This document shows, in pieces, positions 1 through 63,819 of a stretch of DNA of 64,000 nt. Source of the stretch: Albugo candida. Lineage: Eukaryota. A program made the translations under genes and the position numbers. The stretch is taken from the NCBI GenBank assembly GCA_040437565.1, contig JBDOQK010000003.1, forward strand, positions 1-64,000, given 5' to 3'. The notes beneath the pieces are model-generated. The model did not search any database. It was given only the letters and a program-made list of their open reading frames with translations, and had not been told where the DNA came from. How positions within the stretch are numbered: position 1 is the stretch's first letter; each line of letters begins with the position of its first letter.

Positions 1-516
1 AATTTGATTGGTGATGTTCCCGAGGAAACAAAAAACTCTACTATGGGCTTTTCAATGATGCTCGACGAGGACGATCTTGTGGACACATTGATCTTGTACT
101 AGAAAACAGAGAGAAATTACATCAAGCTTATCAAATCTTGAGAGTTTACAGAAGTAGTGAATTTGTTAAATGTGATTTATGAAATATGATTGTCTATGGG
201 AAATAAGGCTCGTAAAAGATTTTTGACTAGATTGAAAAAGATTCACAACTTCTTACTCGTTCCATTATTTCAATACCGCCAAAGTGTTAGATCTAGAGTA
301 AAATTGCAATAGAATGTGTGTCATGGACAAGTGTACTCATGTAGTTGACGTGAGTACTAATTTGATGTTGTTTTCGTTGGTAAAATGGAAAGTGAATACA
401 TTAGGGTCCTTGGTTGCTGCTACTATTCCAAGCCCTAACATTTACGCATTATCTTATAAGCTCCGCTGTATGAATCTTGATTGGTCAATGATTTTTTGAC
501 GACGGCTTTGAAAATG

Positions 517-1420
517 TTATGTATACTCAGCGATTCCATGTTGCACCTGAGTTGTGACGATAGGGGTACTTAGTAATTTCAAAGGATTTTGTTCATTGCG
601 ACCAATTTCAATTTCGAAAGGTGAGATACCACTTGATGCACTAACGAGAGTGGCATGAGCATATTCAATTGTCCCTAAATATTCGGACCAATCACGTCCA
701 TAATACGAAATCATACAGCGTATAGCGTCTTCCAAAATCAATTTTTGACGTTCTGTTTGTCCGTCGGCTTGTGCTTGATATGAGGTTGTCATCTGCAGAC
801 GGATTCTTATCCACTTAGCAAGAGACGACCAAAACTTCGAAACAAACTTGGAATCTCGATCGCTGATAATAATCGATGGTAGACCATGGTGACGAACGAC
901 ATAATCGAAGAAATAACAAGCTGTCATATGGGCATCATTGTTGCGATTTTGGACGTCCGATATTTTGACCGTTTGGACAATTTGTTGACACATGTCATGA
1001 TAGCATCAAATCCGTTGTATTTCGGTAAACCCGTGATGAAATCCATAGAGATGACTGACCAACATTCTTCTGGCATAGGGATCGGAATGATTTTTCCATT
1101 CTTGCGAGCGTTGCTGAGTTTCCAGCGAGTGCATGTTTCACAACTCCGTACGTGATCTTGAACGTCTTGATTTAATGTGAGCCAATGTTACCATTGAGCG
1201 ATGCGTAGAAATGTTCGTTGAGCACCAGGATGTGCGGCAATGTTGGCGTCAGGAAAGCATGCGATGATAGAAGTTCGAAGATAATTATCTTTTGTGTTTG
1301 GTACACACACGCAACATCATTTGTGACTTAAAGTAAAGCTAATCTTCGCGTTTGACATATAGTGAGTCCAGATGTTTGAGTTGCTCTGCATAATCTGGAC
1401 AAATACGATATCCATGGGCA
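517..1420 (-). pseudogene. Ty3/gypsy integrase (zinc-binding region + rve core), disrupted
   Basis: ORF 517-993 has HGLPSIIISDRDSKFVSKFW...QADGQTERQ, typical of gypsy integrase. Upstream frames give HPGAQRTF..CETCTR and PEECWSVISMDFITGLP. Confidence 0.9.
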
Positions 1421-1596
1421 AATTCATTGTAAACCGAATTTTTCTGACCAACTGAGCGACCTTCAATTTCGACATTCTAGTGTCACATTATCAGCCACAA
1501 GCGAAGGCTCGGTAGCGCTTATAAACGCCCTGTACTTAATTTCCATGTATATCGCCATTAGTAAGCTTCAAATCACCAACATTAAAGTCGCTCATA

Positions 1597-12044: not shown

Positions 12045-12213
12045 TTGCTGTTGTTTTTCGACGAATTTATTTCGATGAATGTTTTCGTGATGGCGTCAAG
12101 AGACCGCCCTTGGGGGCGCAATGACTTCATGGTAACCCCAAAAAAAAGTCTAACCAAAGACCGGAACAAACGACAAACACTCGGCGATTGTCTTTCCCAA
12201 TGAAGTGACGTTA

Positions 12214-14299: not shown

Positions 14300-16035
14300 T
14301 TGAAAGGATGATTTACTTCTTATTTCCGAAATTGTTCGATTCTTCGAGATATTCTGTTGTTGCGGTGAATATGGAAGTGTAGCTGATGTACTATTTACGC
14401 TTTGTTGCATAGCTTTGCAAATTTGTGGTTGATATATTTGCCACCGTTATATATAGTCAAGGACTTGATCCTTTTTCCAACTTGCGCTTTGACTAGCGCC
14501 TTGAATTCAACAACTTATTGAGCAGTTCAGACTAGGTTTGGATGAAGTGAGCATGAATTAGATATAAAAGATCGTCGATGAGAATGATCATGTACTGTAC
14601 TTTGCACCACTTTGAGAATTTTCTGTATCGGCCCAACAACATCGCTATGCACCGATTCTAGAAGCGATTTTGTTTCACTTTTCCATATGCAGAAAATTGA
14701 ATGGTCTAATGAAGGGCTTCCCATACATAAAGCGTTCGCGAATTCCGGAATCTACAATATTCGATGCTGATGTTATATCCATAATAGAACTCCCACAAAA
14801 TTCTTCATATTCTTCATATTCTTGCTTGATAAATGACCGAATGCCAAACTGATTCATTCACAAATATATGTTCCTTGTTCCCTACTTCTCCACCACGATT
14901 TGCAACTTTAAGCAGAAAACGTTTTCCTTTCCGTTGTATTGGTACTACTTCACAAGAAGTATTGCAAAATGTTACTAAGAGCCCTTTTCGGCGAGAGAAG
15001 AGACGGAGAAGCTTCTGATCGACATCGAAAACGTACAAGACATTGTCAATTCTAATATTTTTGCTGTTTCTCAGATGCGCATAAACAATATCGACACCTA
15101 CTGCATCCACCTTGCTTCCATTGGCAGCTGAAGTCGTAATTCTTCTTTTCGATGCTTTCAAGCCCGAAAGTTATATTTTATTTGGACGCATGTGGCTTCT
15201 CCGTCTACTATCAAGGATCCATTTGTTCTGTGCCACTTAGAATGTCGTGAAGTCATGAGCTTCTTCACTCTTTTTCTTGGTTCCTTTTCAGCAATGTGCT
15301 TGATTCTACCCGTAATTTTAAAGCGGAAAACATTTCCCTGGACGTTTTCTGCTTGTTCGGAGACTTTTGTGCTTTATCTTTCCGTAGCAGATTGTTGTGA
15401 GCCGTCAGCGCCACTTCATCTGAATACTTCCGATTGATAGTCTCATATACGTTAAGAAGCTTCTCTTTTGCTTGAACAAATCCATTGCAGTTATGCTCTC
15501 TATGATCTTGACAATATAATCGAAATCGTAGGCCACAGTTCTGAGTAGAATTACACGTTTCTGATTCAAGTCGAAGACAGATCCGATTGCTTGCATTGAC
15601 ATACATGATTTATCAATTCTAAGAAACTAATCCGTCACATTCCCGCCTTCCTTCATCCTAAATCCATGTAGCTCGCGTTGCTTATTATTCTTGTTATGGA
15701 ACGAGCGCCTCAGGCAAAAGTTTCAATATCTCCCAATTGAGGAGTTGTACATGCTAACCTAACTCTGGAATGAAAATTTCGACTAATCACGGTTGAGATT
15801 ATCGCGAATACCTTCATATCGTTTATTTTCCAATTCGAAGCAGGAATATCCATTCATTACGGCTATGTAGTCGAGGAATTGAAGGATCAAAATCCAAGGC
15901 ACACGAAATTGAGATGAAGTGGAAACACCTACTGAAGTCACACATGAATATTATCAACTCGGCTCAAGACAATATCGAAAGTATTCTTGGAAATGGGACT
16001 CGAACACTGTACAACAGACTCGGGCCCATTAACAT
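14300..16035 (-). pseudogene. Ty1/copia gag-protease-integrase remnant
   Basis: VHSDVVGPI (integrase) and NIRIDNVLYV (protease/pre-integrase region), plus gag-like pieces. Degenerate PBS-like TAATGGGCCC near 16022-16031. Confidence 0.75.
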
Positions 16036-26825: not shown

Positions 26826-28887
26826 TGTAGCGGATTCAACTTGCATAGACAGTAGTCTTCGAACTATCTTGAAGGAGCGATCAGTCAATGAGAGGATTTA
26901 TACATTCATTCTTAACATTGTTTTTAATCTCAATATAACTTTCCATTTTTCAGCACTGAGAAGTAGTTGTGCTTTCGTTATAGGTTATGAGCCCAAACAC
27001 ATCAGCTCCAAATGACATCCTCACGGATGACAACTATTTCATGTGGGAATTTAATGCACGCATGACCCTCGCGCACAAAGACCTGTTGAATCACGTTATG
27101 ATCAGGCCAGAGCCTGCAGTGCTGCAGGTCCCTAATGAAAAGTCGCCGACATGAAGGCTTTGGCTGTGCTGGTGAAGCTGCTCTCTCCAACCAATCAGTG
27201 TATGGTTCGGGAATGTGAGTCGGCAATTGAGTCTTGGGAGGTTCTTAAGACGTTCTTTGCGAAGAAAAAACTTCACAACCGGGTGCAACTTCGAAAGCAA
27301 TTACATGAGTTTGTGATGCAGACTGGTGCCGGTCTTACGGATTATCTACTTAAGTTTGATGAACTGTTTCTAAAGCTCAGGGCGGCCGGTGACAACATGG
27401 ATGATGAGGAATAGCTGGTTTTACTTTTGGGAAGTTTATCATCCGAATATGATGATATGGTACGCATTATTGAGGCACACAGCAACGTGACACTGCAGGA
27501 CGCAAAAGAGATGCTCCGCCGGGAATATGACACTCTTCAGAGGCGCGACAAGAAGGAAACCGCTTTCAANNNNNNNNNNNNNNNNNNNNNNNNNNNNNNN
27601 NNNNNNNNNNNNNNNNNNNNNNNNNNNNNNNNNNNNNNNNNNNNNNNNNNNNNNNNNNNNNNNNNNNNNGATTCGAACAATGTCGAGCAGACACATGTAT
27701 TTTTGCTCGATGCAATCATGCAAACATCAAGTCACTCACATACATAGTCTTGTATGTGGACGACCTCCTAGTTGGAAGCAAGTCAGATGCTGAGGCAGAC
27801 ACGATATATACAAGGAATTAACAATTAATTTTACTGTTAAGTCAATTGGAGCTGCGCGATTTATTTTGGGCGTGGAAGTGAATTATTCACGAGAAAAAGG
27901 GGAGTTGGTGTTAAAACAGTCCCAATTTCTTGTGAAGTTGGTCTCGAAGTTTGAGCAAAGTGTGGCTATGCAGTTCGCAATCCTATCTGTACAGGCCAGG
28001 ACTTGACTCCTGATGAGTCACACCCAATGCTTAAAGGCAGCACTGCGTACCGCAAATTGGTCGGTTCGCTGCTGTATATTGCGAACGCAACGCGACCAGA
28101 TATTAGCAATGCGATGTCAGTATTGTCGCAGTACTTGGACCAGCCACGACAGATGCACTGGCATGCGGCTTTACGCGTTTTACACTATCTTATGGGAACA
28201 CAATCGCACGGAATCACGTACAAGAAATCGGACGACAACAAGATTATGCTTCGGACATGCTGTGACGTGAATTAGGGAAATGACAAGAATACTCGTCGAT
28301 CTACATCTGGTGTATTGATTTTGCTCGGTTGCGCGGTTGTCGTATACAAAAGCAAGCGCCAAACTTCGGTAGCTTTGTCATTTGCTGAAGCAGAATATAT
28401 GGCACTGGCGCTTGCTGCACAGGAAATTATTTGGATTCGTTACTTGCTCAAAGAGATGGGTGTCACGTGCAATACCGCGACTACAGTGCACATGGACAAT
28501 AAGTCGGCGATAAGTATTGCGACGAATCAAGGCTATACACCAAGAGCCAAACACATTGACCTCAGGATGCATTTTTTTCGGGACCACGTTGAACAAGGCG
28601 AGATCCAGCTCAAGCATATCCCGTCAGCTGTGCAGCTTGCTGATTACTTGACGAACCCACTTGGTGCACCGCAATTACCGCAACTACGCAATGAAAGTGG
28701 AATTCTCGAGAGTGCAAGTTGAAGGGGAGTGTAGCGGATTGCAACTTGCATAGACAGTGGCCTTCGAACTATCTGGAAGGAGCGATCAGTTATGAGGGGA
28801 CTTGTACATTTACTCTCAACATTGTTTTTACCTCTTAATATAGCTTTCCATTTTTCAGCACTGAGAAGTAGTTGTGCTTTCGTTATA
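26826..28887 (+). mobile_element. Ty1/copia LTR element (internal gap)
   Basis: LTRs 26826-26982 and 28730-28887; 5-bp TSD AATAT; PBS GGTTATGAGCCC; PPT GAAGGGGAG. Gag RVQLRKQLHEF, RT YRKLVGSLLYIANATRPDI, RNase H AEAEYMAL..DNKSAI..KHID..LADYLT. Confidence 0.93.
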
Positions 28888-32504: not shown

Positions 32505-34031
32505 ATGCTCCACCTCGCTCGTCTCACATTTATCAGGCTAATTCTGTGTCTACCGATCTTCAAAGCAACAAAGTTGTCGCTCCAAGTACGTGGTTTTGAG
32601 CCAGATCTTTTGATACAATTCGAACAAGGAGAAGTGGTCATACTATATTCGACTAATCGATAAGTGAAGCTACTAATTTTTTGATATTATAGTTCGTTTG
32701 CGATCAGGGGGTACGCAGATTAGAGCACACACGTGTCAACGATGATTACTGTGACTGCGAAGATGGAAGTGATGAACCAGGAACGTCTGCTTGTTCGCAT
32801 ACCGCGGCAACGTTCTATTGTGGGAACGCAGGATATATTCCCCAGCTTATTTCGACCTCGCTGGTTAACGATAACGTGTGCGGTACGTCCTGACCTAGTA
32901 GCCTATTCATATCTACTGTATTTTTCACGTTGTCAAAAAATTGACACCCAAGATTGCTGCGACGGATCCGATGAAGCGTTGCTCAAATGTTCGAATGAGT
33001 GCGGTCGCTATATGGAAGAGTTTCAAACGATGAAAAGTAAAGCTTACGGAATATATGACGCAGGTGCAAAGGCGAGAAATGAGATTGTGAATCAAGGAGT
33101 CTCAAAAAGAAATGCTGATGAGAAAGAAAAAGAGACTCTGGAGGATCAACGAGCTTCTTTTTTAGTCCTTGTGGATCAGCTTAATAATCGTAAGCTACTT
33201 GAAGAAGAACTACAAGAAAAAGAGCGAGCTGAAAAGGTTGAAGGCAGTCAGCAAGACGTCATCGCCAAGCTTGGATTGCTAGAACTTGACGCAGAGAAGC
33301 TTGCTGTATTGTTGGTTGAGTTACTCACTTTGAAAATTAGCAACGAGGCGAATCATGAGCAGCTCATTTTAGAAAAGATACGAGACCAGAGAAACTTACT
33401 GGGGCTAACAGATATTCCTCTGCAACAAAAATTAGGAAAACATGAAGATACGGAAACGTCTCCCAAGTCAGAGAATCCTGGGAGGACTGGGACGGACTCG
33501 GAGGAGGTCGTGGATAGTCCGTTCGAGAAGCTTCTAAATCAAATAAAGTCTTCACACGCATTTGTAAGGGAAGAAACAAAATTAGCGCAAGAGAAACATC
33601 AGGCCGCACTCGATGAGCTGAAGCAATTGGAGGAAAGAATTTACATTCTCGAGCAGTCACTTAATGCGAACTATGGACCCCAAAGCGTTTTGTACTCTCT
33701 GCGTGACTACTGTATAGAAGCATCTCCGAGCCATTACAATTACAAGATTTGCTTGTTTGGTCAAGCCTATCAGAACTCTGTATCATTAGGTGTAATGGAC
33801 TCCGTCAATGTCGAAGACGACACATTGATGCAATTAAGTTTCACAAATGGCGAGCATTGCTGGAACGGCCCACAAAGATCTATAGTCGTCACTTTAGAGT
33901 GCAATCCTACTATGGAATTACTTGAAGTAGAAGAGCCGTCGGTGTGTGTGTACAAAGCAAAGCTAAAGTCGTCCATCGCGTGTGATGCATATCATCTTCA
34001 GCGCCTTAAACGACACTTTCAGGAGATATAG
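32505..34031 (+). CDS. Glucosidase II beta subunit (PRKCSH/Gtb1-like), 3 exons: 32505-~32636, 32693-32882, 32953-34031
   Basis: Hydrophobic N-terminus; exon 2 VNDDYCDCEDGSDEPGTSAC..FYCGNAGY..VNDNVC|DCCDGSDE; coiled coil; C-terminal MRH domain (YNYKICLFG..FTNGEHCWNGPQRS..EEPSVCVY). GT-AG introns restore the frame. Confidence 0.93.
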
Positions 34032-49100: not shown

Positions 49101-50218
49101 ATGCATAATAGGAAATCCTGGTTATACTTGAATAAAAATTGAGCGGACCTCTGGTATTATTCAGTCGTTGTAGAACCTGTCCTAGCGAAACGTTTCGAAA
49201 CGAAAATAGGAGTCATTACCTAAATATTCACTTACTTCAAGTTATTCTTTTGTGTGAGAAAAAGCAGCTAAGAACTGATGGCGATTGGGTGAATGTGTCA
49301 CGGATAACAATTCATTGTATTTAAGTAATGTTATTCAAGTCTGGAAGCTTGATTGGTTTCCTATTATCATTATATGTAGGAACCCGGTATAGCCACACAC
49401 CCTTTTTGGTATAGCCGCACCCCTAACTTAATTGAGAACACCGGTATCATTACATCCTCTAAATATCTTGATAAATGAGAACCGTTATCGGCACACTCGC
49501 TATTATCAAATTCGCTATATGCACCTATTTACATTGCTATAAGTATGCTAAAGTAAATTCCCTATCCTCACTATGCCACTTACTTCACCCCCGGAACACA
49601 TCTATGAGACCTATGAGTATGTGTGGCAAGAAGGCTGTTCCACAAAGCAAGCTCGCATAAACCGCGACAAATACGGAGATACTAGGAAGGTGTGGCTTGC
49701 TTGCGTCCACGGTGGTCGTTAGAAAAACAAAGGCACGAGGATCCGCCAAACATCAAAGCGGCTTCTAATGTGCCCATGGCTAGTCACCACTCAACGCCAA
49801 CTGAGTCAAGATCCTGTTCAAAGATTGGCGAGTGAGTGTNNNNNNNNNNNNNNNNNNNNNNNNNNNNNNNNNNNNNNNNNNNNNNNNNNNNNNNNNNNNN
49901 NNNNNNNNNNNNNNNNNNNNNNNNNNNNNNNNNNNNNNNGATGCATAATAGGAAATCCTGGTTATACTTGAATAAAAATTGAGCGGACCTCTGGTATTAT
50001 TCAGTCGTTGTAGAACCTGTCCTAGCGAAACGTTTCGAAACGAAAATAGGAGTCATTACCTAAATATTCACTTACTTCAAGTTATTCTTTTGTGTGAGAA
50101 AAAGCAGCTAAGAACTGATGGCGATTGGGTGAATGTGTCACGGATAACAATTCATTGTATTTAAGTAATGTTATTCAAGTCTGGAAGCTTGATTGGTTTC
50201 CTATTATCATTATATGTA

Positions 50219-52711
50219 GGAACCCGGTATAGCCACACACCCTTTTTGGTATAGCCGCACCCCTAACTTAATTGAGAACACCGGTATCATTACATCCTCT
50301 AAATATCTTGATAAATGAGAACCGTTATCGGCACACTCGCTATTATCAAATTCGCTATATGCACCTATTTACATTGCTATAAGTATGCTAAAGTAAATTC
50401 CCTATCCTCACTATGCCACTTACTTCACCCCCGGAACACATCTATGAGACCTATGAGTATGTGTGGCAAGAAGGCTGTTCCACAAAGCAAGCTCGCATAA
50501 ACCGCGACAAATACGGAGATACTAGGAAGGTGTGGCTTGCTTGCGTCCACGGTGGTCGTTAGAAAAACAAAGGCACGAGGATCCGCCAAACATCAAAGCG
50601 GCTTCTAATGTGCCCATGGCTAGTCACCACTCAACGCCAACTGAGTCAAGATCCTGTTCAAAGATTGGCGAGTGAGTGTGGTCGTTGCAACACTCACTCG
50701 CCATTCTTTGAAGTAGTTTGATCCTGCTTTTCTTGCCACCAGGTAAGACATTTACAATCTTCGAAAACGTTAACGAACGGAGTTTCTCCTTGGTCACACT
50801 TTGTCAAGGATTTCATTACACTGTTTATCTGGTTCTTTACTACCTTCCTCATCCTACCATGAGCCCCTGACCGTGTGATTATCACTTAAGTCTGACTGCG
50901 AATCTAGGGAGGCAGATATTTTCCAAGCTTATTGCTTCAGTGAGCTCAAACCGCTGCCCACACTGCTGGGGATCGAACTAACGACCTCCGGCAGGGGGTC
51001 CGTGCGCTCAAGTGCTTAACCGACTGAGCTGGGGCGGACCCCTCTCCTTGGTCACACTAGAGGAAAGTGCCATTAGCATGAGCTTGATCGGGACCCCTCA
51101 TCGGGTCAATTAACTCGCCTCTTGATTGCACTTCAGCCTTGCATCTCGACAGACGATGATTTTCTTCGAATAAAGTTCTTATAGCAGATTCGACATACAA
51201 AACCAACAGGCGAGTAAAATGCTTTCCAATAAATCATTCCCCAACATCGACTAAGAGCAGAAAAAACTCCAGGTTTCAAATGCCATTGCTCCATGCCATG
51301 GGTGTGACATGCACAAACCAGTAATATTCCCTTTGTTATGTTTTCTTGCGACACGAATCAGAAGATGATTACATTTGGGCACTTCGGCAAATGAGGATAG
51401 CTTTTCAAGATAGAATCACTGGTCCGATTTTCATTACCGGAAGCGAAAAATCTGCTTTGCATATGGCATACACTAAATATGTCCTGGCAAACGCTAAGAA
51501 GCACTTTGCAAAAGACGAAGACTAGAACGAATTTTTCAAAAAGTGGTACGGATTGTACTGCTCATCCACTGAACGGGAGTTCGAAGAGAATTGGGTGCTC
51601 CTCAAAGATGCTATTAATGAGACTGGCTATGCGTATTTACATTCCACATATATTCCGCACAAGGAAAAATTCATCCTTGCTTGGGCCAAAAATTTAACCA
51701 TTTTGGCATGTAGCTACATCTCGTGTTGAAGGTGGACATGCAACCTTGAAGAAATGGATTGCAGTTTCAACAGGGGATTTGGATTTGGCAACAGTTTATG
51801 ACAAATTGGTTCTCGTAGCTCAACAGCACCAATGAATAAGTCGAAAAGCTGCATACGATCGTTCACACATTATCGTCCGCCTTAGTGGGAGCGTCTGGAC
51901 ACTGTGAATAGAAAGATTCCACATTATGCATTGAATGAAGTATGTAACATTAGTGTATGCATACAGTTGTGCACAGTACTGACAAGATATGCAATGACCA
52001 TATTTTGCTTTCTGCAGGACTTCAAGCAGTAACAAAAGGCACTATCGATGGAGAACAATGAAAAGTGCACTAGAACATTCACGAGCACTAAAGGATTGCC
52101 GTGCTCTCACGCCATCAAAGAGCTGCAAAAGTTGGGGTCAATATTGCATGAAGCTCATTTTCATCAGCACTGGTGGCTTCAAAGGCCTGTGCATCCTAAA
52201 CTGCATCATTCAATGTCTTGTCAGGAAAAAACAAGCTTTTAGGACATTATGAAAAAGTTGCAAGAGCGTCATTAGGACTTGCCGCCACACAGGCAGCGCC
52301 TTTTTGAGAAGGATCTCGATTGCCTTGCATCTGTTACAAGACAAGGGGTAAATGATCCTGCCACAGTGGCCTCACGAGGACGTCCCAAAGGGTCAACGAG
52401 TAACAAACGAGATCTGTCCATTTGAGTACGTTGAGAGGGAGGAGCAGAATGCGGGACTCGCAACCAAGAAGGTCACAACAGGCGCACATGTGCACAGCCC
52501 AAAATTAACAAAACATATCTGTAATAATTTAGAGGTGTGGCGATACGGTTTTCTAATTTAATTTTGATTTTAATTTAGGGGATTTAGCGAGTGTTCCGAT
52601 ACCGGTTCTCATTTATCTAGAATATCTAGAGGGTGTAACGGTGCCGGTGTTCTCAATTAAGTTAGGGGGTGCGGCTATACCAAAAAGGGTGTGTGGCTAT
52701 ACCGGGCTCCC
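50219..52711 (+). mobile_element. MULE transposon with ~120-bp TIRs, decayed transposase
   Basis: TIRs GGAACCCGGTATAGCCACACACCC../..GGGTGTGTGGCTATACCGGGCTCCC; TSD TATATGTA. Motifs HFGHVATSRVEGGHATLKKWI, GLPCSH, HFHQHWWL. Confidence 0.9.
50801..51042 (-). mobile_element. tRNA-derived SINE inserted in MULE
   Basis: Full-length family member; 16-bp TSD TCTCCTTGGTCACACT (50785-50800/51043-51058). Confidence 0.88.
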
Positions 52712-54315
52712 TATATGTATCATCCTCCGGTAAATGGTGATAAATGGTACCGGGATTACACTCAAACTCGATTTCATTCTCTAATTGTATAATTGCACTG
52801 TCTTTGAGCTCAACAACACCTTTGGCTTCCTCCATTGCGGCTTCCAAACTTTATTCCGCTTACCCACTCAGCTTGTTTCCTCTACTTTGAACACCGTTTA
52901 GAGTCGACAGCTACTTGGATGTTTCATTGCGTAAATTGGACGGTGGTAGAGAAAAGCTAAGGAGGAATGAGGCGCCTATTTATAGCGCGCGGTGTCACAG
53001 ATGTCGGGTTCTAGAACTTTTGCTAAGACGCAGAAAAGGGACTGTTATAACGTGCTCCCCCAAATACTAGAATGGCATTATGAGGGAAGGATTCTAGTGT
53101 TGCTTACTTAAGCTAGACACGCTCAACGCACGACCAAGAAACCACTGAACGATCGCGGAATGTATATTACCAACTCTGTCGATACTATTTTCTGTGCTTC
53201 GGTAATCACGTTCCTTTACAGCCGATCCCGTCTTCTTCCCCTCTAATAATTCTAGTCCGAGAATAATCATGAAAGATCGGTAAAAGATTCTAAGTATCCG
53301 CACGAGCAGTTGATATAGGACGGCAGGAGCAAACGGAATCATATGAACAGACGAGTCATACTTGAATTGTCAAACGTAACCTTCATCACTTCCCTTCAAT
53401 GCCACATGCCGCTCCGCCGACACAATGCTATTATTTTACGTCAGATCTTTCGAACGCTTTTTCTACCTTATTTGTTCTAGACTTCTCTGTTGGTTTCCGT
53501 TATCTCTTCCGTATACAAATCTTGAATCATTCTGGTAAATAAGCCTGTGTGAGCGACCATACCATTTCTTTAATTTGCATGCTTGATTCCGATTGCAATT
53601 TTTCTTAATCTCTCGTATGGATCTAGCTGTACCGACATACTACCCATCCTCTACATCTGTAAAGAGTTGGCCAATTAATTGTGAGCATTATCAATGTATC
53701 GTCCTTCGGAATATCAATATAAGCTTTGCCTTGGCGTGATCGATATCTCTTGAGTAAGTTTTCAATCGTAAGCCTAGAGAAATTTCGATCTGTCTGTTTC
53801 TAAATAGTCGCACACTGACCTTCGAGACGAATATCATGAGGTTTCTTTATTGTTGCATGAATCAGCAACGATTGTGGAAGAATGTATGAGTTGTACTATG
53901 ACGTACTACTTCAATTTCTTATGATAACTTTGAAGGAAGATGTATGTTGTTCTTCATATCAAATGATATTTGATAATCAATCAGCCCCGCTGATTTTCAA
54001 TTCTCGTTCCATACAATTGATATGTCTGAGTAGTAAAGAAGCCTTCGTCACGAGGGCGTCACTTTAGTGACTCAATCTTATTATCCAAAATCAATGAGTC
54101 AAACATATGTCGTGCAAATTTAGCATGAGGTAGTCCGCAGCAATGCTTACATGTCTTAGAATGTTTTGACCGATTTTAATTTATCTTCTTGATACTCGAA
54201 TTTTGAAACCACTCACGTCTGGATCATGCAGCAAGTCATCGAGCAGTTTTAACCCGACAGACCGCTCTCCATTCCCGGCGTCCCCCTCCTAGTTGTCTTC
54301 TCCAATATAAAGCAT

Positions 54316-55060
54316 ACCTACGAGGACGTGATAGTAGTCAGCAAGCGGATCAACGACGACGGCTTATTCTCCACCTGGTCGATCGTCTACCATCCTGTCT
54401 CCAAGGGCAACGAGACGATGAAGCCGGGCTCGAAGATCATGACGTCGCAGACCTGGTTTCGTCCGCACTGTGACGCGACGGTGCGACGAGATGGTGTGTC
54501 GAAAAAGCTGTCCCACTACGTGGCTGCCCAGATGTAGTCAACTGCACTTTAGCTGGGTGGCAATCTTGCGACCTGGCAAGGTTAGAAGTTCACGTTGACG
54601 AAGATTGCGGACGATTCAGAAATGCCGCTGTTCACCTGCTCACGGACGGGCAATTCGCCGCTTCTTCCTTGATCCACAACAGAGGGACCGTTGAGCAGCT
54701 GTACGAGGATGATCCGGCATGGACTGCGTAGGCAACGTCGAGTTCGACCCCAGGATCGTGTAGCCCTACCGTGTGTACGACCCCTTAGACGTGAGCTCGT
54801 TGCCGACCTCGCGTTACAGATACTACGTCTTTGATCCGGGCAGTCAGCTGTACACCTCGCTGGCAGACTACGGTATCTGCCAGTTCTGGCAGCTGTCACA
54901 TGTTGCCCGCGACAAGCAGAACTACGTTAGCGAGGTGCCGAGGAGGCTTTCAATGCGGCGAGCAAGCTGAAGGTTGCAGGCGTCAGGCTTGGGGAGATGG
55001 AGACGCTGTCCATGCTGTCGGGCGGCCTCGTGACCTGGATTTTGCTCACCAGCAGCAAGG
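54316..55060 (+). pseudogene. Divergent DNA-dependent RNA polymerase second-largest (beta/RPB2-like) subunit, C-terminal fragment
   Basis: Colinear motifs TYEDVIVVS (54316), LGGNLATWQG*KFTL..EMPLF (54553-54635), FWQLSHVARDK (~54883) and GVRLGEME (54979-55002). They parallel RPB2 NQEDS / GDKFASRHGQKGT..DMPF / YQRLKHMVDDK / GGLRFGEME. Contains stops and frameshifts. Confidence 0.85.
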
Positions 55061-55901
55061 CAATCAATGTATAGCGTAGACTTCTCCAACGGCTTCCAAG
55101 AAAAAGTAAGAATTTGATCGTCGCTCTGACCCATATCCAGAATTTTGTCGATGACATCAGCTGAGAAACCCAAGCTGTTGGCCAACGGCTGCAGGAGTTG
55201 TAGTTCATAACCATAATTGTGATGTCTTTCTGGTGAAGATTTGGATTTGATAGAAAGTACTTTTCGTATGGCTTTTTTCAACCAACCTACCCAAAGAATT
55301 CTGTCAAATTACGGTGCGGATTGAGAGCGCCAGTGCATGTATTGTACGACATGCAAATAGCCGATTGATAAAGTATCAGCACAAAACGAAGCTTCGATGC
55401 GTCCTTTTACAGCTGTGATCAGACAACGTCGCGATTCACAGAAGCTTGATATGTCAGAAAACACAACTGGGGACCTTTTCCATCGATCGGTACTGTATTT
55501 TGCCACACTATTGAAGAACTGTGAACGTATTCTCCAGAAGATCCATATCCATTCTTCGTGGGAAGCCTTTTCTGCGTCTTACGAGTTCACTGGTACGGAC
55601 AGGTAAAAAATCGAGAAGCGGAGATGTCGCATATAGATCAATATTGCAAACGCGTTACTGCTCAATATTGCTCAGCTTCTATGTCGATACACTTCGAGCA
55701 CCAAGAACGCGTTTGAATGAAGAAATGCTCTCGGCGAGAAATAATGTACTTTATATACTTTAAAAGAACCTTCGTTTCATTGATAACCTACCTTACAGTA
55801 TACATCTGCTAATATCCCACACATACCACATAATCGAGTTTCGAGTAAATTAAGTGGGATAGCTTCATTCGAACTAGGTGACTAGCTTCACCGCTCACAG
55901 T

Positions 55902-56154
55902 TGATTGGAGGATTGAATTATTTAACGGAAAGAGCAGGTTATTTGCTCAACCATTAAAATTTCCAGTTTCGTCTGATCGCAAAATGAACGGGTATGAATA
56001 TCGATCCGTGTTAGAGAGAATCGAGGTTAATGGGCGACTAACTTGGCCGCATACAGGTGATTGGAGGATTGAATGTTATTATAACGGAAATAGCAGGTTA
56101 TTTGCTCAACCATTGAAATTTCCAGTTTCGTCTGATCGCAAAAGGAATGGGTAT
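55902..56154 (+). repeat. Imperfect ~95-bp direct duplication
   Basis: TGATTGGAGGATTGAAT...GCAGGTTATTTGCTCAACCATT.AAATTTCCAGTTTCGTCTGATCGCAAAA occurs at ~55902 and ~56058. Confidence 0.8.
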
Positions 56155-57221
56155 ATATCGATTTGTGTTTCATTTTATATTTCGTTTTCTAATTCAAGTG
56201 AAGGAGCTCCGACAAGGAAAAATTGGATGGGAGCTCATCTGTGTGGTATGCTGCGATTATGCATCTGGTCGTGTTATTTCGGTTTGATCGTCTGTTTGTT
56301 GAGTGTCTGTCTCCACCCGCCTATTTGTTATTTACTGCACCAGTGGTAACAGAGAAGACGCACCAAGACTGCCGGGATACATTAGACGTACATTAGACGT
56401 ATAATGTACTGCTTCCATTGTGAGCCCTTCGAAGATTCAGGTAATATATCCTGATATCTTTTATACTATCCGAGATGTGCATATATATCCCTTTCGAATG
56501 GGCAAGCATGCATTATATTTTATCGAGAGAAGAATACTCGCTCGGACCTCGTGTAAGGTCTCTTGATTTCTAGTTCACTTGAATAAAGACAAACTGTTTC
56601 GATCCTTCTCTGAAACGTTTTACGTTGTTTTCTGAATACACTAATAATATAAGCTATCCGGTGTATAGACGTTTACGAAGGAGCATAATGAATTTCTGAT
56701 CTGACAGTCATCTAATATAGTGCTTATATAACATATCACAGTGATATAGAATTGAATTCTACTTGGCTGGCATTCCCAGCGTAGTCAAACCACCTGTCTA
56801 CGTGCACATCGGCTCATCTCGCATCATGTGCACCGACAAATCGAGGGAAGGCTTAATGTTCTGAGCATCTAAGCCTCCCTGTCCGACTCAATAGCGACCC
56901 GCACAACACCAGCATACCAGCCAGGCCTACCTCAACGCCTGCATACGCTTCCATGGCGAAGGCTCCATCAAGTATTTCGGCAATCCCGAAGGGATACGCC
57001 CCGCCTTTGAGAAGTGCACGAAGTCCAAGCCGTACCGATGCAGACCTCATCCATTGCGCTCGACTTCCTAGGCATCCTCCAATGCATAAGCGTGCTCGCT
57101 CGTTTAAAAAACGCCTGCAAAAGCGGTGCAGATGGTTTGCGTAGTTGCCGGTCATGGTGGATGCGACGGGACATGCGAAGTGGCAGTCTTCCAGGTACGC
57201 TGGGTAGCGCGGACGGGAGAG

Positions 57222-58803
57222 TCAGTGGTCCAGTGAGTCGATGTCGTCGCAGGCAGTGGCGTGCAGGACAGGCGAGTACGTCTTCGAGAGGAAGTTGACG
57301 TTCACTGAGTCAGCAATTGCAGCATCTGGGTCGCCATACGTGGCGCAGAACAGAGCATGGGCCAGCTTGGCTTCTTTCGTCTCGAGAGCACTGATGCGCG
57401 ACAGATGCCAACCAAGCTTCACGGATAGTAGCATCGCGAGAACCTGTCGGCGGGGTCCCTCAGCTGTGCAACGTCGGAGCTATTAAGCGCATAGACTGCT
57501 GTACCGCGTGTCCGATCGCCCAACTCAGCGTCTAGCCTGCCACTCACGTCTCTGGTGACGAAGAACGACTGCTTCTCCGTGAGCAGCAAAAAGAGCAAGC
57601 TGGACTTCTCCGAGCCGGGACCATGCTTATCCTTGTCCATGAGCTCCTGCTGAATCGCACCCCAGACGTGAAAGGACAGCTTCATCCCAGGAAAGCCGTG
57701 CTCCCTAACCGAGTACTAAGGGCCTTGAACTCTTAGGCGAAGTCTGTCCGGCCTAGGCACCCACTGAGTCACGATACCCTGCTGAAAAGTCACCGTCTGG
57801 AGCAGGAAGTGCTTGAGCTGACGACCCACCGTGAAACCCTCAGAGATGCGTATGTGACTCTCGGTCAAGTCGTGAACGCTGTCATTGCACCTCTGTACGA
57901 ACGTCCCCATCCTTGCTGCCCTGTTGCAAAGGTGCGAGGAGAACGTGTACCATTGCGTACGCTTGCAATAGAGAAGGTCGTGAACGAGTTTTATCTTCAC
58001 GCAGCTTGCGTCTTGATCTACACTCAGAGGAGGCAGCGTCATGAAGTCAAGCACCTAGCGTCAAGGGTGGAACGGTCGAAGTCTGATGCGTCTAGCGCAT
58101 GTGCCACCTTGTCGCGACTGAACTTCGACAGCGTGTTGAGACAAAAGTTTGCCCCACCCTCCTCTTCGCAGCGCTTAACCATCATGATAGACACATGCAC
58201 CTCATCACCGTTGAAGTCCAGGTTCAGTGACGCGCAGTCATCCCGGCGCACTCCGAAAGAGGGTTCGCTCCAGAAGCGCAGACGTACACACCTGACAGAT
58301 TCGTATGAGAGAACAGGGCAGCGCGAGAGGATTGCGTAGTCATCCTTCTTCAACTTGCGCCAGCTGTAGTAAGGTGACCCGTACTCGCCTTACTCCAAGC
58401 GCATGGGAACCATCATTCTCTCTGCCCAGCGACACGGCAACCACACTTCGAAGTACGGATCGGTCCAGGCGCACATGGCGACACCCTAGCAGTGTTCAAC
58501 GACTTAAACCCATGCAGCCGTACTTCAGGAGTCCACGCTTCCCCTAGATGCAGTTGCGCAGACTGACCACGTACTGAGACATTGATGTGTCGTGATCGGC
58601 TAGTTGAAGATTCATCTTGTCGCGTTCTCTCAGTTCATACGGACTCGATGGGTCGGAGAGACAGGGTATCAGGAGAAGCGCGTCCCGTCATCACTGCCAA
58701 GGTGCCCCATACTGCGCTCGTGGAACGGACAGTCTTCGACGAGACCGACGCAGTTTGACTTACTCGCTGTCCACTTGACGTAGCGCAGGTTGTTGACGTT
58801 CAT
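57222..58803 (-). pseudogene. Divergent, compact DNA-dependent RNA polymerase largest (beta'/RPB1-like) subunit
   Basis: Colinear SLRNCI*GKRGLLKYGCMG (cf. LKGKEGRIRGNLMG), EVWLPCRWAERMMVP and KKDDYAILSRCPVLSYES (cf. DGDxVLFNRQPSLH). CASLNLDFNGDEVHV at 58224-58201 matches CxPYNADFDGDEMN. The 3' limit is approximate. Confidence 0.88.
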
Positions 58804-61800
58804 GGCGAAGCGAAACAGACGCAACCTTTGTGCAGCCGTTAACCCTTACACCTCTTCTCAGATCACGCCTTGCATCAAACACAGCAATATTAACGCCGTC
58901 GTCTATCCCCCTCATCTCGACCAGTCGATTGCTGGAACGCGGCAAAGTGTATGCGGCCGTAACACGTTAGCGCACTCAGTCTGGCATGATGCTCGTCGTA
59001 ATCGTCCTCGCTCTCCAAGCTGTAGCTGCGTCAGCGGCAACCACCTACATAGAGTACGAGGATGGCAACTGCGACCCGTTCCTCGGAGGTGGGTACTTCT
59101 GCAGCGCCTGCTCTACGAGGCAATTCCTGACTGATAACTGAAACGGTATCTGATACAAAAGGTACAGCGTCGTACACCAGGACAACGGCGAGAAGGAGAT
59201 GACCCTCACCCACCATTGCGGTGTAGCAGTAGTCCTGAGGACAGTGCGCACTATAAAGGCTGCAAGATCGTAGCGTCCGCACCGTTTCCTCATAACTCGC
59301 GACACGACTCAACAGCGATGCAGCGACTCCGTCTCCCTCTCTAGCCCAAGACTGACGCAAAACATTAACCAAACGCACGACGACGTTGTACCTCTGCCGG
59401 CGTTTACATCTAGCCCGCTCACAACTACACAAAATTCAGCCGCCAGGAGTTAACCTCTAATGCGGAGTGAGCATTCGTGCGAGATTCCTGTGGTGAGGAA
59501 AATATTTCGGGATTAGAGCATTACGTGCAGAGATCCGTTAGGCGGAAGTGGGTGCGGTAGAAGGCATAAAGCGCAGAGCTTTCGGTTAGGTGAAGCTGGG
59601 TGCGGGATGATAGCCAATGTTTTGCCGCTAGCCGAGGAGCAAAGAGAGGTGGAAGTGCGGCGAGTAGCTGCAGACCAGCCGTGGGATCGACGTAGGCAGT
59701 GCTCGGCCTTGAGCTAGACAGCTGAAATACACTGTAGAGCATAGGCAGGACACCGCGCTTCGCGCTTAATTTCTTTTTGCTACACGTCTTCCGACTAGTA
59801 CATCTCGTGTTCTCCGTTGCTGAAAAGCTGTCCTTGTCATCGCACCCACCGTAGCAGTCGACAAGACGCACGCATGAACCTTACTACGACGTATCCCGCC
59901 TACCTGAAAGACGAGAGGCGGAGGTCGAGCCCACGAATTTTTGAACACGCATGCCTCTGCCCACTACCTGCACCACGCGAGGCGGAAGCGGAGATCCTAC
60001 CTCCTTCAACCACGAGCCTCGCAACACGCAACCCGTGAGGCGGGAGCAGAAGCATTCAACTTAAATCGTGTAGTAGCTGTACTAAGCCTGGAGCATCACA
60101 CCTTTATTTCTACCCCCAAAGCAACACATTAGTAGCGCACTGGCACGGACTTTGTTCCTACAAAACACTTAAGGATTTGATAGCAATATTTTTACTCTCC
60201 AAATTACGATTAAAAACATATGTTATACGAAATATAGAAAGAAACCATATAATGAATGGATATAATTATGTGAAGATGTGGTGTTGTTTCACGAATATAT
60301 ATCCAACGCATTTTGCAGCGTCTGTAATAGTTCAGACGATTCATGTGTCACCACCCTAGCTTCCTTTATGGTCAAGATTCCTAGAACACTGGCTTATCGA
60401 GTCTGGTAGAATGCTTCCGATATTTTGTCGGAAAATGAGACTAACTTAACTCACGGTCGATAAGCATACACATAACCCTTTGAAACGTAACGATGGGTAC
60501 ACTTTTTCAGACAGAGTGCTGGCGCGTCGATTGTATCACTTGTAAATTTAGTACTCACCATTTGCATCATGTATTACCGAGTTAGCTAATCCTGTTCGCT
60601 TCCCCTAGATTCCTCTTCTCACTCAGAAAAATGGTTTCTTTCTTTATCTTCCGAATGACTCGAACATTATCACCAATTTTGTCATCACCGTTTTCGTTCT
60701 TCTTCTCGTACGTCTGACGAGTTCTTTTCTTATGACTGGTGAGAAGCAGCCTTAGTTAAGAGCTAAGTCAATGCTTGCATTTGGGACGAGTTTGATCAAA
60801 GTGAGAAACCAAGCGTAAATCTGAATATGTCTTGACTTTGTCGTTCCCAATTAAGAATCTCTACTGATTAAGCACTCTTGGAAACATGTTACCATTATGC
60901 CTCGGAATGGTTACCCTACGAGCCGTGGACCCGTTTGTAGCAGAATGGGTTCAAGAAGGTGCCATCAAGCTGGTCTAATGAGCTACCATGGATGTATAGT
61001 ATGAATAATCGCAATCACTGCCTAATTTGAAATCAAACCAAGCACCGTAGTTGACGACGTGGAAAGATCCAACTCATCTTAGATCGTGTTTCGTGGATGA
61101 CCATGTACCGCACTTACATAGTGAGATTGACAGGCTTCACATGTTGTAAGGACAGGCTCGAATTTCCGCGAATACGATCGGGGGATGGATCCTTATGTCT
61201 CACAATCTACTCCTGGGTACATATGAGCTTCTGAGTTTTCGAAGACTACGTCAACATTTGTACGTGGTTCTGTGCATGTCTGTGTCTTTTCGTTTTCGTG
61301 AGTTTTTACTGAGAGCGTGCTAAGTGGACAAAATCGGCACGTATGATTTCTTTAAGATGCTCCATAGTCGCGTTTAGTGAGCTATGAGTAAAGTTACAGC
61401 TTACAAATTGCCGCTCTAAGATAGTTAACGAATAGAAGAAGAGGTAGTTCATCCCCACAAGCGTTGCCGTGAGTACTAAAATATCAAATTGACAACCATA
61501 AATAAGTTGAGGTGTCATAGGGCCTTCATATCAAGGGTGCCAGCATCTTCGAGGTACGTAGGTGCTTTGCTACGTTAATTTCCTTCCTAACAGAATCCGC
61601 AAGGTGAGGAGCATTCAAAAGTCGATTGCTTACCTTTTAGTAGAGTGGTTTCATTGTAACTTTTACTGATAGCCTATATTTATATACCCTCAACCTTTAG
61701 CACTTGAAAGGATATCCTTGCTCCAAAAAATCTTGGGCTACTGGGTGAGATTACTAGTTGGTGTCTCATGGATCAACAATCAGCTGTATTTTTCGTTTCA

Positions 61801-62238
61801 AATGAATGTGATGCCGGATATCAACTATCTCTTCTCATCCTTCGGTTTTAATTCGGCATTTGAACTCATTTTCAATCCGAGACCGTGGAATAGGACGCGT
61901 TGTTCATCAGCCAAAAGAAGAAATTTCAATAATTTTACAATATGTTGCACCGCTATGATATGATACACAGCGCTCAAACAGCTGTCATCAATGTAATAGT
62001 ACCAATGATCAGCTTGTGAAGTACATCGCTGATGTATGCACGAGGTCATCGCGAAACCTGCCTAAAATTGTCATCTTTCTCTGTGGTTTTGATACTATAT
62101 AACTTCTTCGCTCTTGACGATTACGCATAAGTATTGGATTCGCTTTATGCAAACCTATCTTCGCTTTCAAGCGCGTCTTGGCGTTCTCAAGATCAATTGA
62201 ATTTCGCATTTTCTCGCTCCAAGAAGCCTTATGCTAAA

Positions 62239-63819
62239 TGTAACAACCTCCATTGTACATGCATGCATAGTTTTATATATAGTGCACGACACCTACAACC
62301 GACATTCCCATATTTTTGCGGCCAAATTTCCAAAAATCTATTTCATGCAGAGTATACTTCTAACTTGGTAAAAACCTGTTTTGTGAACCAATCACGTGAC
62401 AAATACCTGCTTTGTGAACCAATCGGAATCCGAAATTAATATGTAACGCGAAACTATAGGGTGGACACCTATCTAGATATATATGTAGANNNNNNNNNNN
62501 NNNNNNNNNNNNNNNNNNNNNNNNNNNNNNNNNNNNNNNNNNNNNNNNNNNNNNNNNNNNNNNNNNNNNNNNNNNNNNNNNNNNNNNNNGTGATGCACTT
62601 GTTGCAAAGAGAATGAACCTTGGCCCTGGTGGAAAACAACCAAAAATGAGGAATGATTTAAATAAATCATCCCCGGAGTTACTGTAAACAATTAATTAAT
62701 ATGTGCTTTCTCAAGGCCAACGACTTATGGAGACAATGTGCCTTAGCATGGTTTATTCAGACGATTATGAGAATGAGGAACTACGTGGTAAACCAAAGGG
62801 AATCAAGGCTGTTTTAAGCGAACGTGGTCTTTGGCAACCTGGCTTATGTTTGGTTTGCTGAAGTGATGTCAGATGCTCCGATATTCTTTCTTGCTGCGCT
62901 CGCACTATCATGTCCCGACAGCCAGGTTTTGTGGCCCAGCGTGGATTACTTGAGGAGGTGATTACAGCAGCTGGGCATAAAGTTATATCTTACCCCAAAT
63001 TTCATTGCGAGTTGAACTACGTTGAGAACTTTTGGGGCGCCGCAAAGCAGTACACACGGAAGCACTGCAATTACTCCTGGGCTGGCTTGCAAGAAACTGT
63101 CCCCTCTGCCATGTCCTCAATCAGCTTTACAACAATTCGCCGATTTGCATGCAAGACACAGCGGTACATGGATGTCTACCGTAAGATTCTCAGTGGAAAA
63201 GCTGCCGAATATGCAGTGAAGAAGTACCGTTCACACCGTCGCATTCCAGCCTCTGTTCTTATGAACGTTAATGCACTTCTAAACTAGATTAGAGATATAC
63301 ACATAACCAACAAAGAAAATATGTAAGTCTATATCAGATTTCTAACACACTATCTATTTTCAAATGGTCCTTTCTAATTAGCTAAAACAATTATCTATTT
63401 TTAGGTGGTCCTTTCTAATTGGTTAAAAAAGTATCTATTTTTAGATGTCCGGCCAAATTTCCAAAGCTCCATACATAACCACGAAAATTTGCCGAACTTC
63501 AAAGGCTTCTAACTTCATCAAAAATAAATTTTGCAAAAATCCGACTCTATTGCCAGATAGCCACGGCAATGTACTTTTAAGGTATAGAGAGATATTTTTG
63601 TTCAAGTGTGTAATTGAGTGTCCCAAAAACATTTTGCGCACCGGGTGGAGGTGCTGGTTATAGGTGTCGTGCACTGTAGTTGGAGAACTGGACTAGCCAA
63701 TCAGATAGCTGAACCAGGATTCTTTAATTAAAAATCTTACTTTCCATTTTTTAGCAAATAGAGCTCCACCAGCAAATATCTTCCTTTGCTTCCACCCCCT
63801 TCCTCCTGCCGGCGTTACA
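62239..63819 (+). repeat. Gypsy 5' LTR (same family as 12538-12711) split by a DDE insertion; leader continues to the window end
   Basis: TGTAACAACCTCCATTGTACATGC... (62239) and ...CCGGCGTTACA (63819) rejoin into a homologue of the 12538-12711 LTR. PBS-like TGGGGCAC follows. Confidence 0.85.
62280..63676 (+). mobile_element. Long-spacer DDE family transposon (internal gap)
   Basis: TIRs TAGTGCACGACACCTACAACC / GGTTATAGGTGTCGTGCACTG+TA. ORF 62910-63287 YPKFHCELNYVENFWGAAK..KKYRSHRR. Confidence 0.88.

Follow-up and report, generated by a model that had tools for sequence, protein, structure and literature searches.

The window analysed here, a stretch of 64,000 nucleotides of Albugo candida DNA (assembly GCA_040437565.1, contig JBDOQK010000003.1, positions 1 to 64,000 of the forward strand), carries on its minus strand, at 57108..58915, a broken gene for a compact homologue of the largest (beta') subunit of RNA polymerase. 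The copy in the window is a pseudogene, unable to make a working protein, and the family to which it belongs falls within the largest subunits of the two-barrel RNA polymerases (the beta'/RPB1 superfamily). It is highly probable that part of a small foreign DNA element was inserted here into the nuclear genome of an A. candida-like oomycete and has since decayed, and that the protein in its intact form serves as catalytic subunit of a minimal polymerase. The compactness of the family is native and does not reflect loss after insertion, since the window copy is colinear with intact proteins of 604 amino acids (aa) and the full-length relatives measure 547-664 aa.

The pseudogene and its intact relatives

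The pseudogene extends from approximately 58915 down to approximately 57108 and comprises roughly 604 codons; its limits were drawn from tblastn searches of the window with the relatives P0001-P0004, from stop-to-stop segments and from a match to Pfam family PF00623. Residues 1-599 of P0001, an intact homologue of 604 aa, align colinearly to 58915->57123, passing through frames -1, -2, -1, -2, -1 and -3, with five changes of frame (near 58804, 58680, 58495, 58050 and 57431) and four in-frame stop codons (58544-58546, 58390-58392, 57716-57718 and 57222-57224). No large block of the intact protein is absent. In addition, the second aspartate of the Mg-binding triad has been replaced by asparagine: the catalytic loop (58201..58224, minus strand) reads NLDFNGDE, codon 58210-58212 specifying Asn where the intact relatives have Asp, and it aligns to NADFDGDE of RPA1 and archaeal Rpo1N. 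The piece 58042-58389 (RKLKKDDYAILSRCP...NLDFNGDEVHV) passes the Pfam cut-off for RNA_pol_Rpb1_2 (29.2 vs 25.3 bits, E 1.3e-6).

The original prediction for this locus described a stripped-down beta' subunit, far smaller than cellular ones, with about 500 codons between 58803 and 57222. All the strings that it quoted were located on the minus strand at 57.2-58.8 kb, and the small size is borne out by the intact homologues of about 600 aa. The proposed length and limits, on the other hand, required revision: tblastn with P0001 revealed that the ATG at 58803 is internal to the gene (residues 1-37 lie upstream in another frame) and that the stop at 57222-57224 is premature, the whole gene comprising about 604 codons and ending outside the proposed interval.

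The region 56800-60100 is present, wholly or partly, in 20 listed sequencing runs from 15 studies, and the pseudogene was compared with the contigs of 4 of the 24 listed runs. The contigs of run X9, a run not flagged as a possible source, span 57050-58950 at a depth of 56-58, with one or two differing letters and no gaps; because they show the same breaks, these are not errors of the present assembly. No RNA data were found among the listed runs that hold the locus. Runs X11 and X16 contain a near-identical copy of the pseudogene plus a second, more divergent one with extra indels of 1-2 nucleotides (nt), which in run X11 shows 101 differing letters in a single 540-nt piece; it could be a paralogue of the fossil or a haplotype that has diverged from it. 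An open reading frame (ORF) of 145 aa found elsewhere (P0018, from a cluster of six members) has NLDFNGDE and the same truncated end.

An exhaustive HMMER search for the family gave 187 matches at E<=1e-3, of which 79 reached E<=1e-10 and 36 reached E<=1e-30. Among the 79 relatives at E<=1e-10, 38 measure 547-664 aa (median 602; these constitute the full-length set), three measure 783-831 aa and none exceeds 831 aa. No homologue of more than 1,000 aa was therefore present in this set, as expected if the compactness is native, and proteins of more than 900 aa appeared only lower in the HMMER list, matching the catalytic loop alone. Word-indexed searches yielded 12 relatives of 531-651 aa. The family includes hypothetical proteins deposited at NCBI for Lobulomyces angularis, Bremia lactucae, Melampsora americana and Rhizopus delemar.

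Two family alignments were used, one of 24 members (A1) and a larger one of 59 sequences. PF00623 is matched by all 24 members of A1, in which, with the threshold opened to 10, no other Pfam family was found at E below about 0.06; Rpb1_1, Rpb1_3, Rpb1_4 and Rpb1_5 went unmatched in all 24 even at E<=10. The catalytic loop of the family has the form N/H-x-D-F/Y-D-G-D-E, and D[FY]DGDE is present in every one of the 38 full-length relatives. The N-terminal pattern C..[HC]..C.GH was detected in 29 of the 38; within A1, no variation is seen at C68, G70 and H71, and conservation at C62 and H65 is 90% or higher. The corresponding sequence of the pseudogene, the zinc-site-like motif CPFHERSMGH (C-x2-H-x2-C-x2-H; 58702..58731, minus strand), is a putative metal site, which we equate with the zinc site in the N-terminal clamp core of RPB1. 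It stands in the translation from the ATG at 58803 (MNVNN...CPFHERSMGHL), where the original prediction had placed it.

A scan of IMG/VR with P0001 returned zero relatives, and a scan with A1 returned only six distant loci (L001-L006) with larger polymerase ORFs; among the 14 metagenome loci considered, only L007, L008 and partly L009 belong to the family, the rest encoding ORFs of 850-1,370 aa. Two unusual proteins deserve mention. P0055 (807 aa) is a family-type beta' homologue with an N-terminally fused NADAR domain (PF08719, E 5.8e-40). P0112 (1327 aa), a large subunit of canonical type, holds the Rpb1_2 stretch three times in tandem (residues ~642-719, 725-808 and 815-897), to be explained either by a fault in assembly or by an unusual triplication within the protein.

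Predicted fold and reduced architecture

The fold of P0001, the closest intact homologue, was modelled with AlphaFold2 from the 24-sequence alignment (mean predicted local distance difference test score 81.9; predicted template modelling score, pTM, 0.80). The best 50 Foldseek matches in PDB were all largest subunits of RNA polymerases (E 1e-8 to 1.6e-7). In the VIA comparisons (Z 16.5-19.2 overall, 400-540 residues aligned), the model was aligned on NRPD1 of Pol IV (8xme_A) with Z 19.2 and a root mean square deviation (rmsd) of 5.5 over 522 residues (model 25..599 -> chain 9..1259), and on yeast RPB1 (2nvx_A) with Z 16.8 and rmsd 5.7 over 511 residues (model 27..600 -> chain 10..1440). Against representatives of canonical large subunits clustered at 40% identity, Z ranged from 13.3 to 17.0. 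As modelled, the 604 residues are colinear with the entire core of a subunit that exceeds 1,400 residues.

At residues ~140-264 the model further matches double-psi beta-barrel domains from unrelated proteins (Z 8-10.6), so that the barrel fold expected of a beta' homologue is indeed predicted for the intact protein. In BFVD, Foldseek placed RPB1 homologues of giant viruses and poxviruses first (E from 4.6e-9). An Atlas search performed with a 480-aa ORF was uninformative, and the ESM Atlas model of that ORF had a pTM of 0.18.

The reduction relative to canonical subunits can be followed from the N terminus. The putative zinc motif (C62, H65, C68, H71) is separated from the GKRG segment by only ~55 residues; in RPB1, ~250 residues, including the clamp head, lid and rudder, lie between these points. 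Next comes the dock. On the minus strand of the window, VWLPCRWAERMMVP is followed by MRLE*GEYGSPYYSW and then by RKLKKDDYAILSRCP, which confirms the observation that ~15 residues separate VWLP..WA..MMVP from the next motif, one of these positions being a stop. When A1 and the 59-sequence alignment were compared by hhalign with an alignment of canonical subunits (A2), a gap of 38-41 columns opened between ...MMVPMRLE and EGEY..RKVREGD. The proposed deletion of the dock is thus substantiated as a shortening, although a remnant of 15 positions (58360..58404, minus strand) persists where canonical subunits hold ~40 more residues. With respect to bacterial beta' the shortening is milder, 146 profile positions corresponding to ~164 residues.

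Downstream of the catalytic loop NLDFNGDEVHV lie ESHIRISEGFTVGRQLKHFL and GAIQQELMDKDKHG, the region in which the original prediction had assigned, by eye, a bridge helix and a trigger loop. These assignments are moderately supported, short of proof, by the limits of split-subunit alignments and by weak profile matches. The longest helix of the P0001 model comprises 40 residues (333-372) and corresponds in the window to RMGTFVQRCNDSVHDLTESHIRISEGFTVGRQLKHFLLQ (ESHIR..GRQLK; 57803..57922, minus strand). Archaeal A' (2pmz_A) aligns to model 30..408 (Z 16.0, rmsd 4.9, 297 residues); this subunit has its bridge helix near the C terminus. A cyanobacterial chain of ~1,220 residues (8syi_Z), which we take to be the beta' chain RpoC2, aligns from model 337 to 604 (Z 7.3). 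Because these boundaries of split-subunit polymerases bracket model 337-408, the bridge helix was placed, with moderate confidence, at ESHIR..GRQLK (333-372). In hhalign, the canonical bridge-helix profile found its best alignment at family residues 321-384 (E 0.019), and hmmsearch gave weak stretches of similarity (E ~1) to the bridge-helix start of P0133 and P0152.

With the bridge helix so placed, GAIQQ.LMDK.KHG is left as the trigger-loop helix. The probable trigger-loop helices GFPGMKLSFHVWGAIQQELMDKDKHG... (57578..57697, minus strand) correspond to model helices 410-432 and 437-447, and were recognised from conservation in A1, where G408, P410, Q424, D428, A430 and K431 are invariant, together with a weak alignment of family profile positions 380-424 to GEPMGLTSAQVLCRTTVQAILDTFK of the canonical-type P0149 (E 0.075 in a 10-sequence set). 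This stretch begins where the archaeal A' alignment stops (408), and only ~35 residues lie between the two elements in the family. To judge by the alignment, the invariant K431 may occupy the position of the canonical trigger-loop histidine. The trigger-loop portion of A2 was too ragged to be informative, and a regular-expression search of the loci for canonical bridge-helix and trigger-loop motifs matched in three sequences only.

LMDKAKHG was initially suspected to be the bridge helix, before the model helix 333-372 and the split-subunit alignments pointed elsewhere. The reverse of the assignment given above, in which residues 410-447 (GAIQQALMDKAKHG...) form the bridge helix and ESHIR..GRQLK belongs to the funnel, nevertheless deserves consideration: read by eye, L-D-x-A-K resembles the universal bridge-helix motif D-T-A-x-K-T-A, and the preceding GFPG..L recalls the GF..S...GL..E found ahead of bridge helices. 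It is, however, unlikely. Archaeal A', bridge helix included, aligns to model 30..408 only; the cyanobacterial chain aligns from model 337; the canonical bridge-helix profile favours residues 321-384; and 408-432 aligns to the trigger-loop stretch of P0149. Furthermore, the ~155 residues that follow 447 are too few to accommodate a trigger loop, a cleft and a clamp core.

With the bridge helix at 333-372, we arrived at the following working map of P0001: a zinc knuckle at 62-71; a GKRG/switch-2-like segment at ~116-140; the barrel at 140-264, with D234, D236 and D238; vestigial pore and funnel at 265-332; the bridge helix at 333-372; a short hairpin linker at 373-407, with no foot; trigger helices at 408-447; and a cleft/clamp-core segment at 450-604, with no jaw.

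The probable carrier element and its remnants

Two metagenomic contigs from soil, those of L007 and L008 (20.3 and 23.7 kb), provide a picture of the intact element. Their ORFs are densely packed and open under the standard genetic code, and their guanine plus cytosine (GC) content is 46-50%. The beta' genes encode 599 and 656 aa (with alternative starts), and a convergent gene, 3.6-3.8 kb away, encodes a beta-like protein of 829 and 852 aa, respectively, with matches to Rpb2_6 (E 3e-11 and 2e-13); four unmatched ORFs are located between the two polymerase genes. Both loci also encode a family B DNA polymerase (PolB) of 741 and 750 aa (PF00136, E ~1e-38), and the ORF beside it shows a weak match to a primase (phrog_1156, E 6e-7 and 9e-5). 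The remaining ORFs gave AAA hints at most. No match to a capping enzyme or a helicase was found in the surveyed 13.6-14.5 kb of these loci. Neither locus shows a shared upstream 6-7-mer, the start codons being uncertain, nor any sign of an ATNTGA element like that of killer plasmids.

The full-length relatives occur on contigs of 13-27 kb, and contigs of the same size have been assembled repeatedly. In the cluster of P0001, the longest contig measures 17,442-17,456 bp for 7 of the 14 members; the next cluster, which includes a 536-aa protein of Albugo laibachii Nc14, has contigs of 17,624 and 17,851 bp; and further clusters show repeated lengths of ~17.57 kb (here a Rhizopus arrhizus protein is included), 18.9-19.4 kb and 26.6 kb. 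This recurrence of sizes suggests that the carriers of the family are discrete replicons.

The window has retained only a portion (~4.2 kb) of such an element. A remnant of the beta-like partner, frameshifted and 5'-truncated, was identified at 54265..55122 on the plus strand by tblastn with the L007 and L008 ORFs (E 1e-17 and 9e-11); it corresponds to residues ~457-763 of the relatives of 829-852 aa and has the convergent orientation to the beta' gene that is seen in the intact loci. For the piece 54253-54534, the sole PDB matches were bacterial beta subunits, at ...YEDAIILS..., and these were weak (E 0.29). No more element genes were detected in the window by tblastn with the neighbouring ORFs of L007 and L008.

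The element fragments stand out by their composition. The GC-rich block at 56800..60100 (53-58% vs ~40% for the window) comprises the beta' pseudogene and ~1.2 kb of upstream sequence without an assignable gene, and ends at ~60.1 kb, where the GC content falls sharply to 36%; ORF pieces at 58.9-60.1 kb gave no Pfam match. A second GC-rich block (56-58%) is present at 54.25-55.1 kb. Between the two lies an AT-richer spacer of 1.7 kb (55123..56799; 37-45% GC). Both junctions of the element are inside a single gap-free stretch (49940-62489), and no inverted repeats were found around the insertion. Within the spacer, 55877-56154 holds two families of direct repeats, 42 and 73 nt long and 83-95% identical, spaced 156-159 nt apart; they may stem from a short tandem duplication or from the insertion of a repeat.

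The analysis establishes the homology and fold of the family, the sizes of its members, the neighbourhood of its genes and the pseudogene state of the window copy, whereas catalysis, association with the partner, the residue-level list of missing domains and an episomal existence of the element are inferred. On this basis, the intact ~600-aa protein would act as the catalytic, Mg-binding large subunit of a minimal DNA-dependent RNA polymerase with two subunits and two barrels. It would consist of an N-terminal zinc knuckle (clamp core), a GKRG/switch-2-like segment, a double-psi beta-barrel with the DxDGD loop, a bridge helix, a short trigger-loop hairpin and a C-terminal cleft/clamp-core segment, while the clamp head, the lid and rudder region, the dock, most of the pore and funnel, the foot and the jaw would be absent or vestigial. 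The beta-like protein of 830-850 aa encoded by the same element presumably pairs with this subunit, and the pair may transcribe the genes of the element without the host polymerases. The family B DNA polymerase and the primase-like protein would replicate the element, which may live as an episome.

Several observations weigh against this interpretation. Profile-profile alignment to canonical large subunits is reliable for residues 116-262 only (probability 99.6-99.8%), and outside this range none of the sequence methods gave a dependable alignment with canonical subunits. Bridge-helix and trigger-loop matches were weak, at E 0.019, 0.075 and ~1, and a profile of the bridge-helix/trigger-loop region (A3) found no RNA polymerase among the PDB sequences, the best matches being ferritin and FliE (E 0.23-5). 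Which domains are missing was judged from aligned ranges of the model and from lengths, not from residue-level superposition, and the list should be read as provisional. Moreover, of the 79 relatives found at E<=1e-10, 38 fall below 520 aa and may include truncated forms. Finally, the gene content established for L007 and L008 covers 13.6 and 14.5 kb of their contigs, and six or seven ORFs per locus (121-480 aa) remained unmatched in Pfam (E up to 5) or PHROGs.

Relation to known polymerases and genomic setting

Among canonical enzymes, the best profile matches of the family are plant Pol V (E 7e-16), archaeal Rpo1N and RPB1, and the family is colinear with RPB1 from residue ~10 to ~1440 (structural Z 16-19). 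Canonical subunits are nevertheless two to three times larger, and the family differs from them in lacking the Rpb1_1, Rpb1_3, Rpb1_4 and Rpb1_5 signals and ~40 residues of the dock. The known minimal polymerases include LEF-8/LEF-9, the killer-plasmid polymerase, YonO and the jumbo-phage enzymes. Like the family, the split beta' of the jumbo phages AR9 and phiKZ, gp96 of P23-45, the crAss-like gp62 and QDE-1 are non-canonical two-barrel polymerases of mobile elements, and all of them were recovered in the structural search. Their matches, however, were weaker and partial (AR9 Z 11.9, model 33..266; phiKZ 11.2; gp96 8.7-9.6; QDE-1 8.6; gp62 8.2) than those of the canonical subunits (Z 13-17).

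The closest parallels are LEF-9 with LEF-8, which are likewise compact beta' and beta homologues encoded by separate genes of a eukaryotic DNA element, and K2ORF6p/K2ORF7p, the polymerase of a small fungal DNA element, whose reduced architecture (available part of PMC6211774) is similar to that of the family but not identical. The family might be a divergent branch of one of these described polymerases, LEF-9 (with LEF-8) or that of the yeast killer plasmids (virus-like elements, VLEs), and its architecture would then not be new; we consider this improbable.

As regards LEF-9, the subunit sizes are near those of LEF-9 and LEF-8 (~500 and 870 aa), and the LEF-9 cluster (PF05094) is the second-nearest language-model neighbour of the family and the nearest named one (score 0.91, which serves as a lead only). 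Foldseek also lists LEF-9 among the BFVD matches, from a nudivirus (E 7e-5) and a nucleopolyhedrovirus (E 3e-4), but these matches are weak (TMq 0.19-0.25) and rank 39 and 44, four orders of magnitude behind the giant-virus and poxvirus RPB1 homologues (E ~1e-8). The 24 members of A1 match no Pfam family other than PF00623 at E below ~0.06; PF05094 itself was unmatched in all 24 at E<=10, the presence of this model in the scanned copy of Pfam being unchecked. The catalytic loop of LEF-9 is NTDCDGD, which differs from N/H-x-D-F/Y-D-G-D-E of the family. In addition, LEF-9 is carried by large genomes of insect viruses, whereas the family is found on contigs of 17-27 kb, with oomycetes and fungi as the named hosts.

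As regards the killer plasmids, the VLE polymerases are likewise fungal and small and, according to the available part of PMC6211774, are devoid of most of the clamp, the lid and rudder, and the rim helices; VLE-like contigs in Mucoromycota, Zoopagomycota and a chytrid are mentioned in the available part of PMC13348850. Their organisation, as far as the same part of PMC6211774 describes it, is different: beta is fused with part of beta' and accompanied by a small second subunit. In the family two separate genes encode ~600 and 830-850 aa, and a fused beta-beta' form was found in none of the 150 relatives listed (longest family-type match 831 aa; longer sequences match in the catalytic loop only). 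The family also retains the N-terminal zinc motif and the GKRG segment, unlike K2ORF6p/K2ORF7p. The VLE DNA polymerases are akin to those of adenoviruses, virophages and polintons (PMC13348850, available part), while the polymerase of the present elements is of the PF00136 type and is encoded beside a primase-like ORF. The GC content of the elements (46-50%) also speaks against this origin. The VLEs are further characterised by a protein-primed PolB, by a capping enzyme and a helicase encoded on the same element and by terminal inverted repeats. The family would work like LEF-8/LEF-9 and the killer-plasmid polymerase, but is set apart from both by these differences, the comparison with LEF-9 and K2ORF6p being one of profiles and features rather than of the sequences directly.

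Derivation from a deletion-riddled RPB1 fragment of a giant virus (Nucleocytoviricota) or of the host, with compactness arising after insertion, can be practically discounted, unless all the ~600-aa proteins are fragments too: RPB1 of eukaryotic type and of giant viruses is the nearest neighbour in structure and in profile, and insertions of giant viruses in oomycetes are reported in the available part of PMC8204020, but intact 604-aa proteins align along the window copy in order and with no large gap, the 38 full-length relatives are found on contigs of 13-27 kb, and none of the 24 A1 members matches Rpb1_1, Rpb1_3, Rpb1_4 or Rpb1_5. It is equally far-fetched that the gene in the window is functional by means of introns, programmed frameshifts or another genetic code, a view favoured by nothing except the long colinear similarity and opposed by frame changes that add no sequence relative to the intact homologue (and hence are not introns), by four in-frame stops, an altered catalytic Asp and a truncated partner gene, by relatives that are open under the standard code, and by the more divergent second copy with further indels in runs X11 and X16.

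Among the minimal polymerases that mobile DNA elements encode, the family probably represents a further form, and the elements that carry it may be a new group; a literature search, with supplements outside its scope, did not find a published description of the family. We tentatively put forward, as a possibility somewhat short of an even chance, that the elements constitute an unrecognised lineage of self-replicating and self-transcribing double-stranded DNA elements of 17-27 kb in oomycetes and in early-diverging and rust fungi, that theirs is the smallest two-subunit polymerase to keep a zinc site, a bridge helix and a trigger loop, and that the Albugo locus is a fossil left when one of them entered the nucleus. 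Such elements could be viruses or cytoplasmic plasmids, and may be related to the stock that gave rise to the killer-plasmid or the LEF-8/LEF-9 polymerases.

Minimal relatives of the cellular RNA polymerase are of interest in that they reveal the indispensable parts of the enzyme. The family would add a two-gene enzyme of ~1,430 residues, a compact target for studies of structure and mechanism, which has apparently kept the zinc knuckle, the switch-2 segment, the barrel, the bridge helix and a very short trigger hairpin with Lys for His, and has apparently dropped the clamp head, dock, foot and jaw. The cytoplasmic elements known from fungi rely on a fused polymerase, and according to the available part of PMC10640383 fungi have so far no known double-stranded DNA virus. 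The range of known eukaryotic DNA elements would be broadened by discrete contigs of 17-27 kb to which named proteins tie Albugo, Bremia, Rhizopus, Melampsora and Lobulomyces, and such contigs would help to trace how plasmid and viral polymerases arose. For the genome of A. candida itself, the locus is an inert fossil.

The window, which holds 12 gaps of 100 N, appears to be nuclear DNA of A. candida or a very close relative, to judge from an intact host gene and from the mobile-element fragments around it. The host gene, an ORF of 435 codons at 32724-34028 (plus strand), encodes the beta subunit of glucosidase II (PF13015, E 3.9e-29) and is 100% identical over 83% of its length to an A. candida protein and 62% identical to the orthologue of A. 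laibachii. The window is rich in transposon fragments, which were detected at 520-1005, 9255-10223, 11493-12095, 14817-15170, 24063-24500 and 27139-27411 and comprise an integrase core, Ty3-type reverse transcriptase and RNase H, a retrotransposon gag, a Pol beta-barrel, a MULE transposase and a copia-type gag. An open stretch of 141 codons at 62862-63284 (plus strand; …KFHCELNYVENFWGAAKQY…), for which no Pfam match was obtained at E<=0.01, presumably resembles the C-terminal part of a DDE-type transposase.

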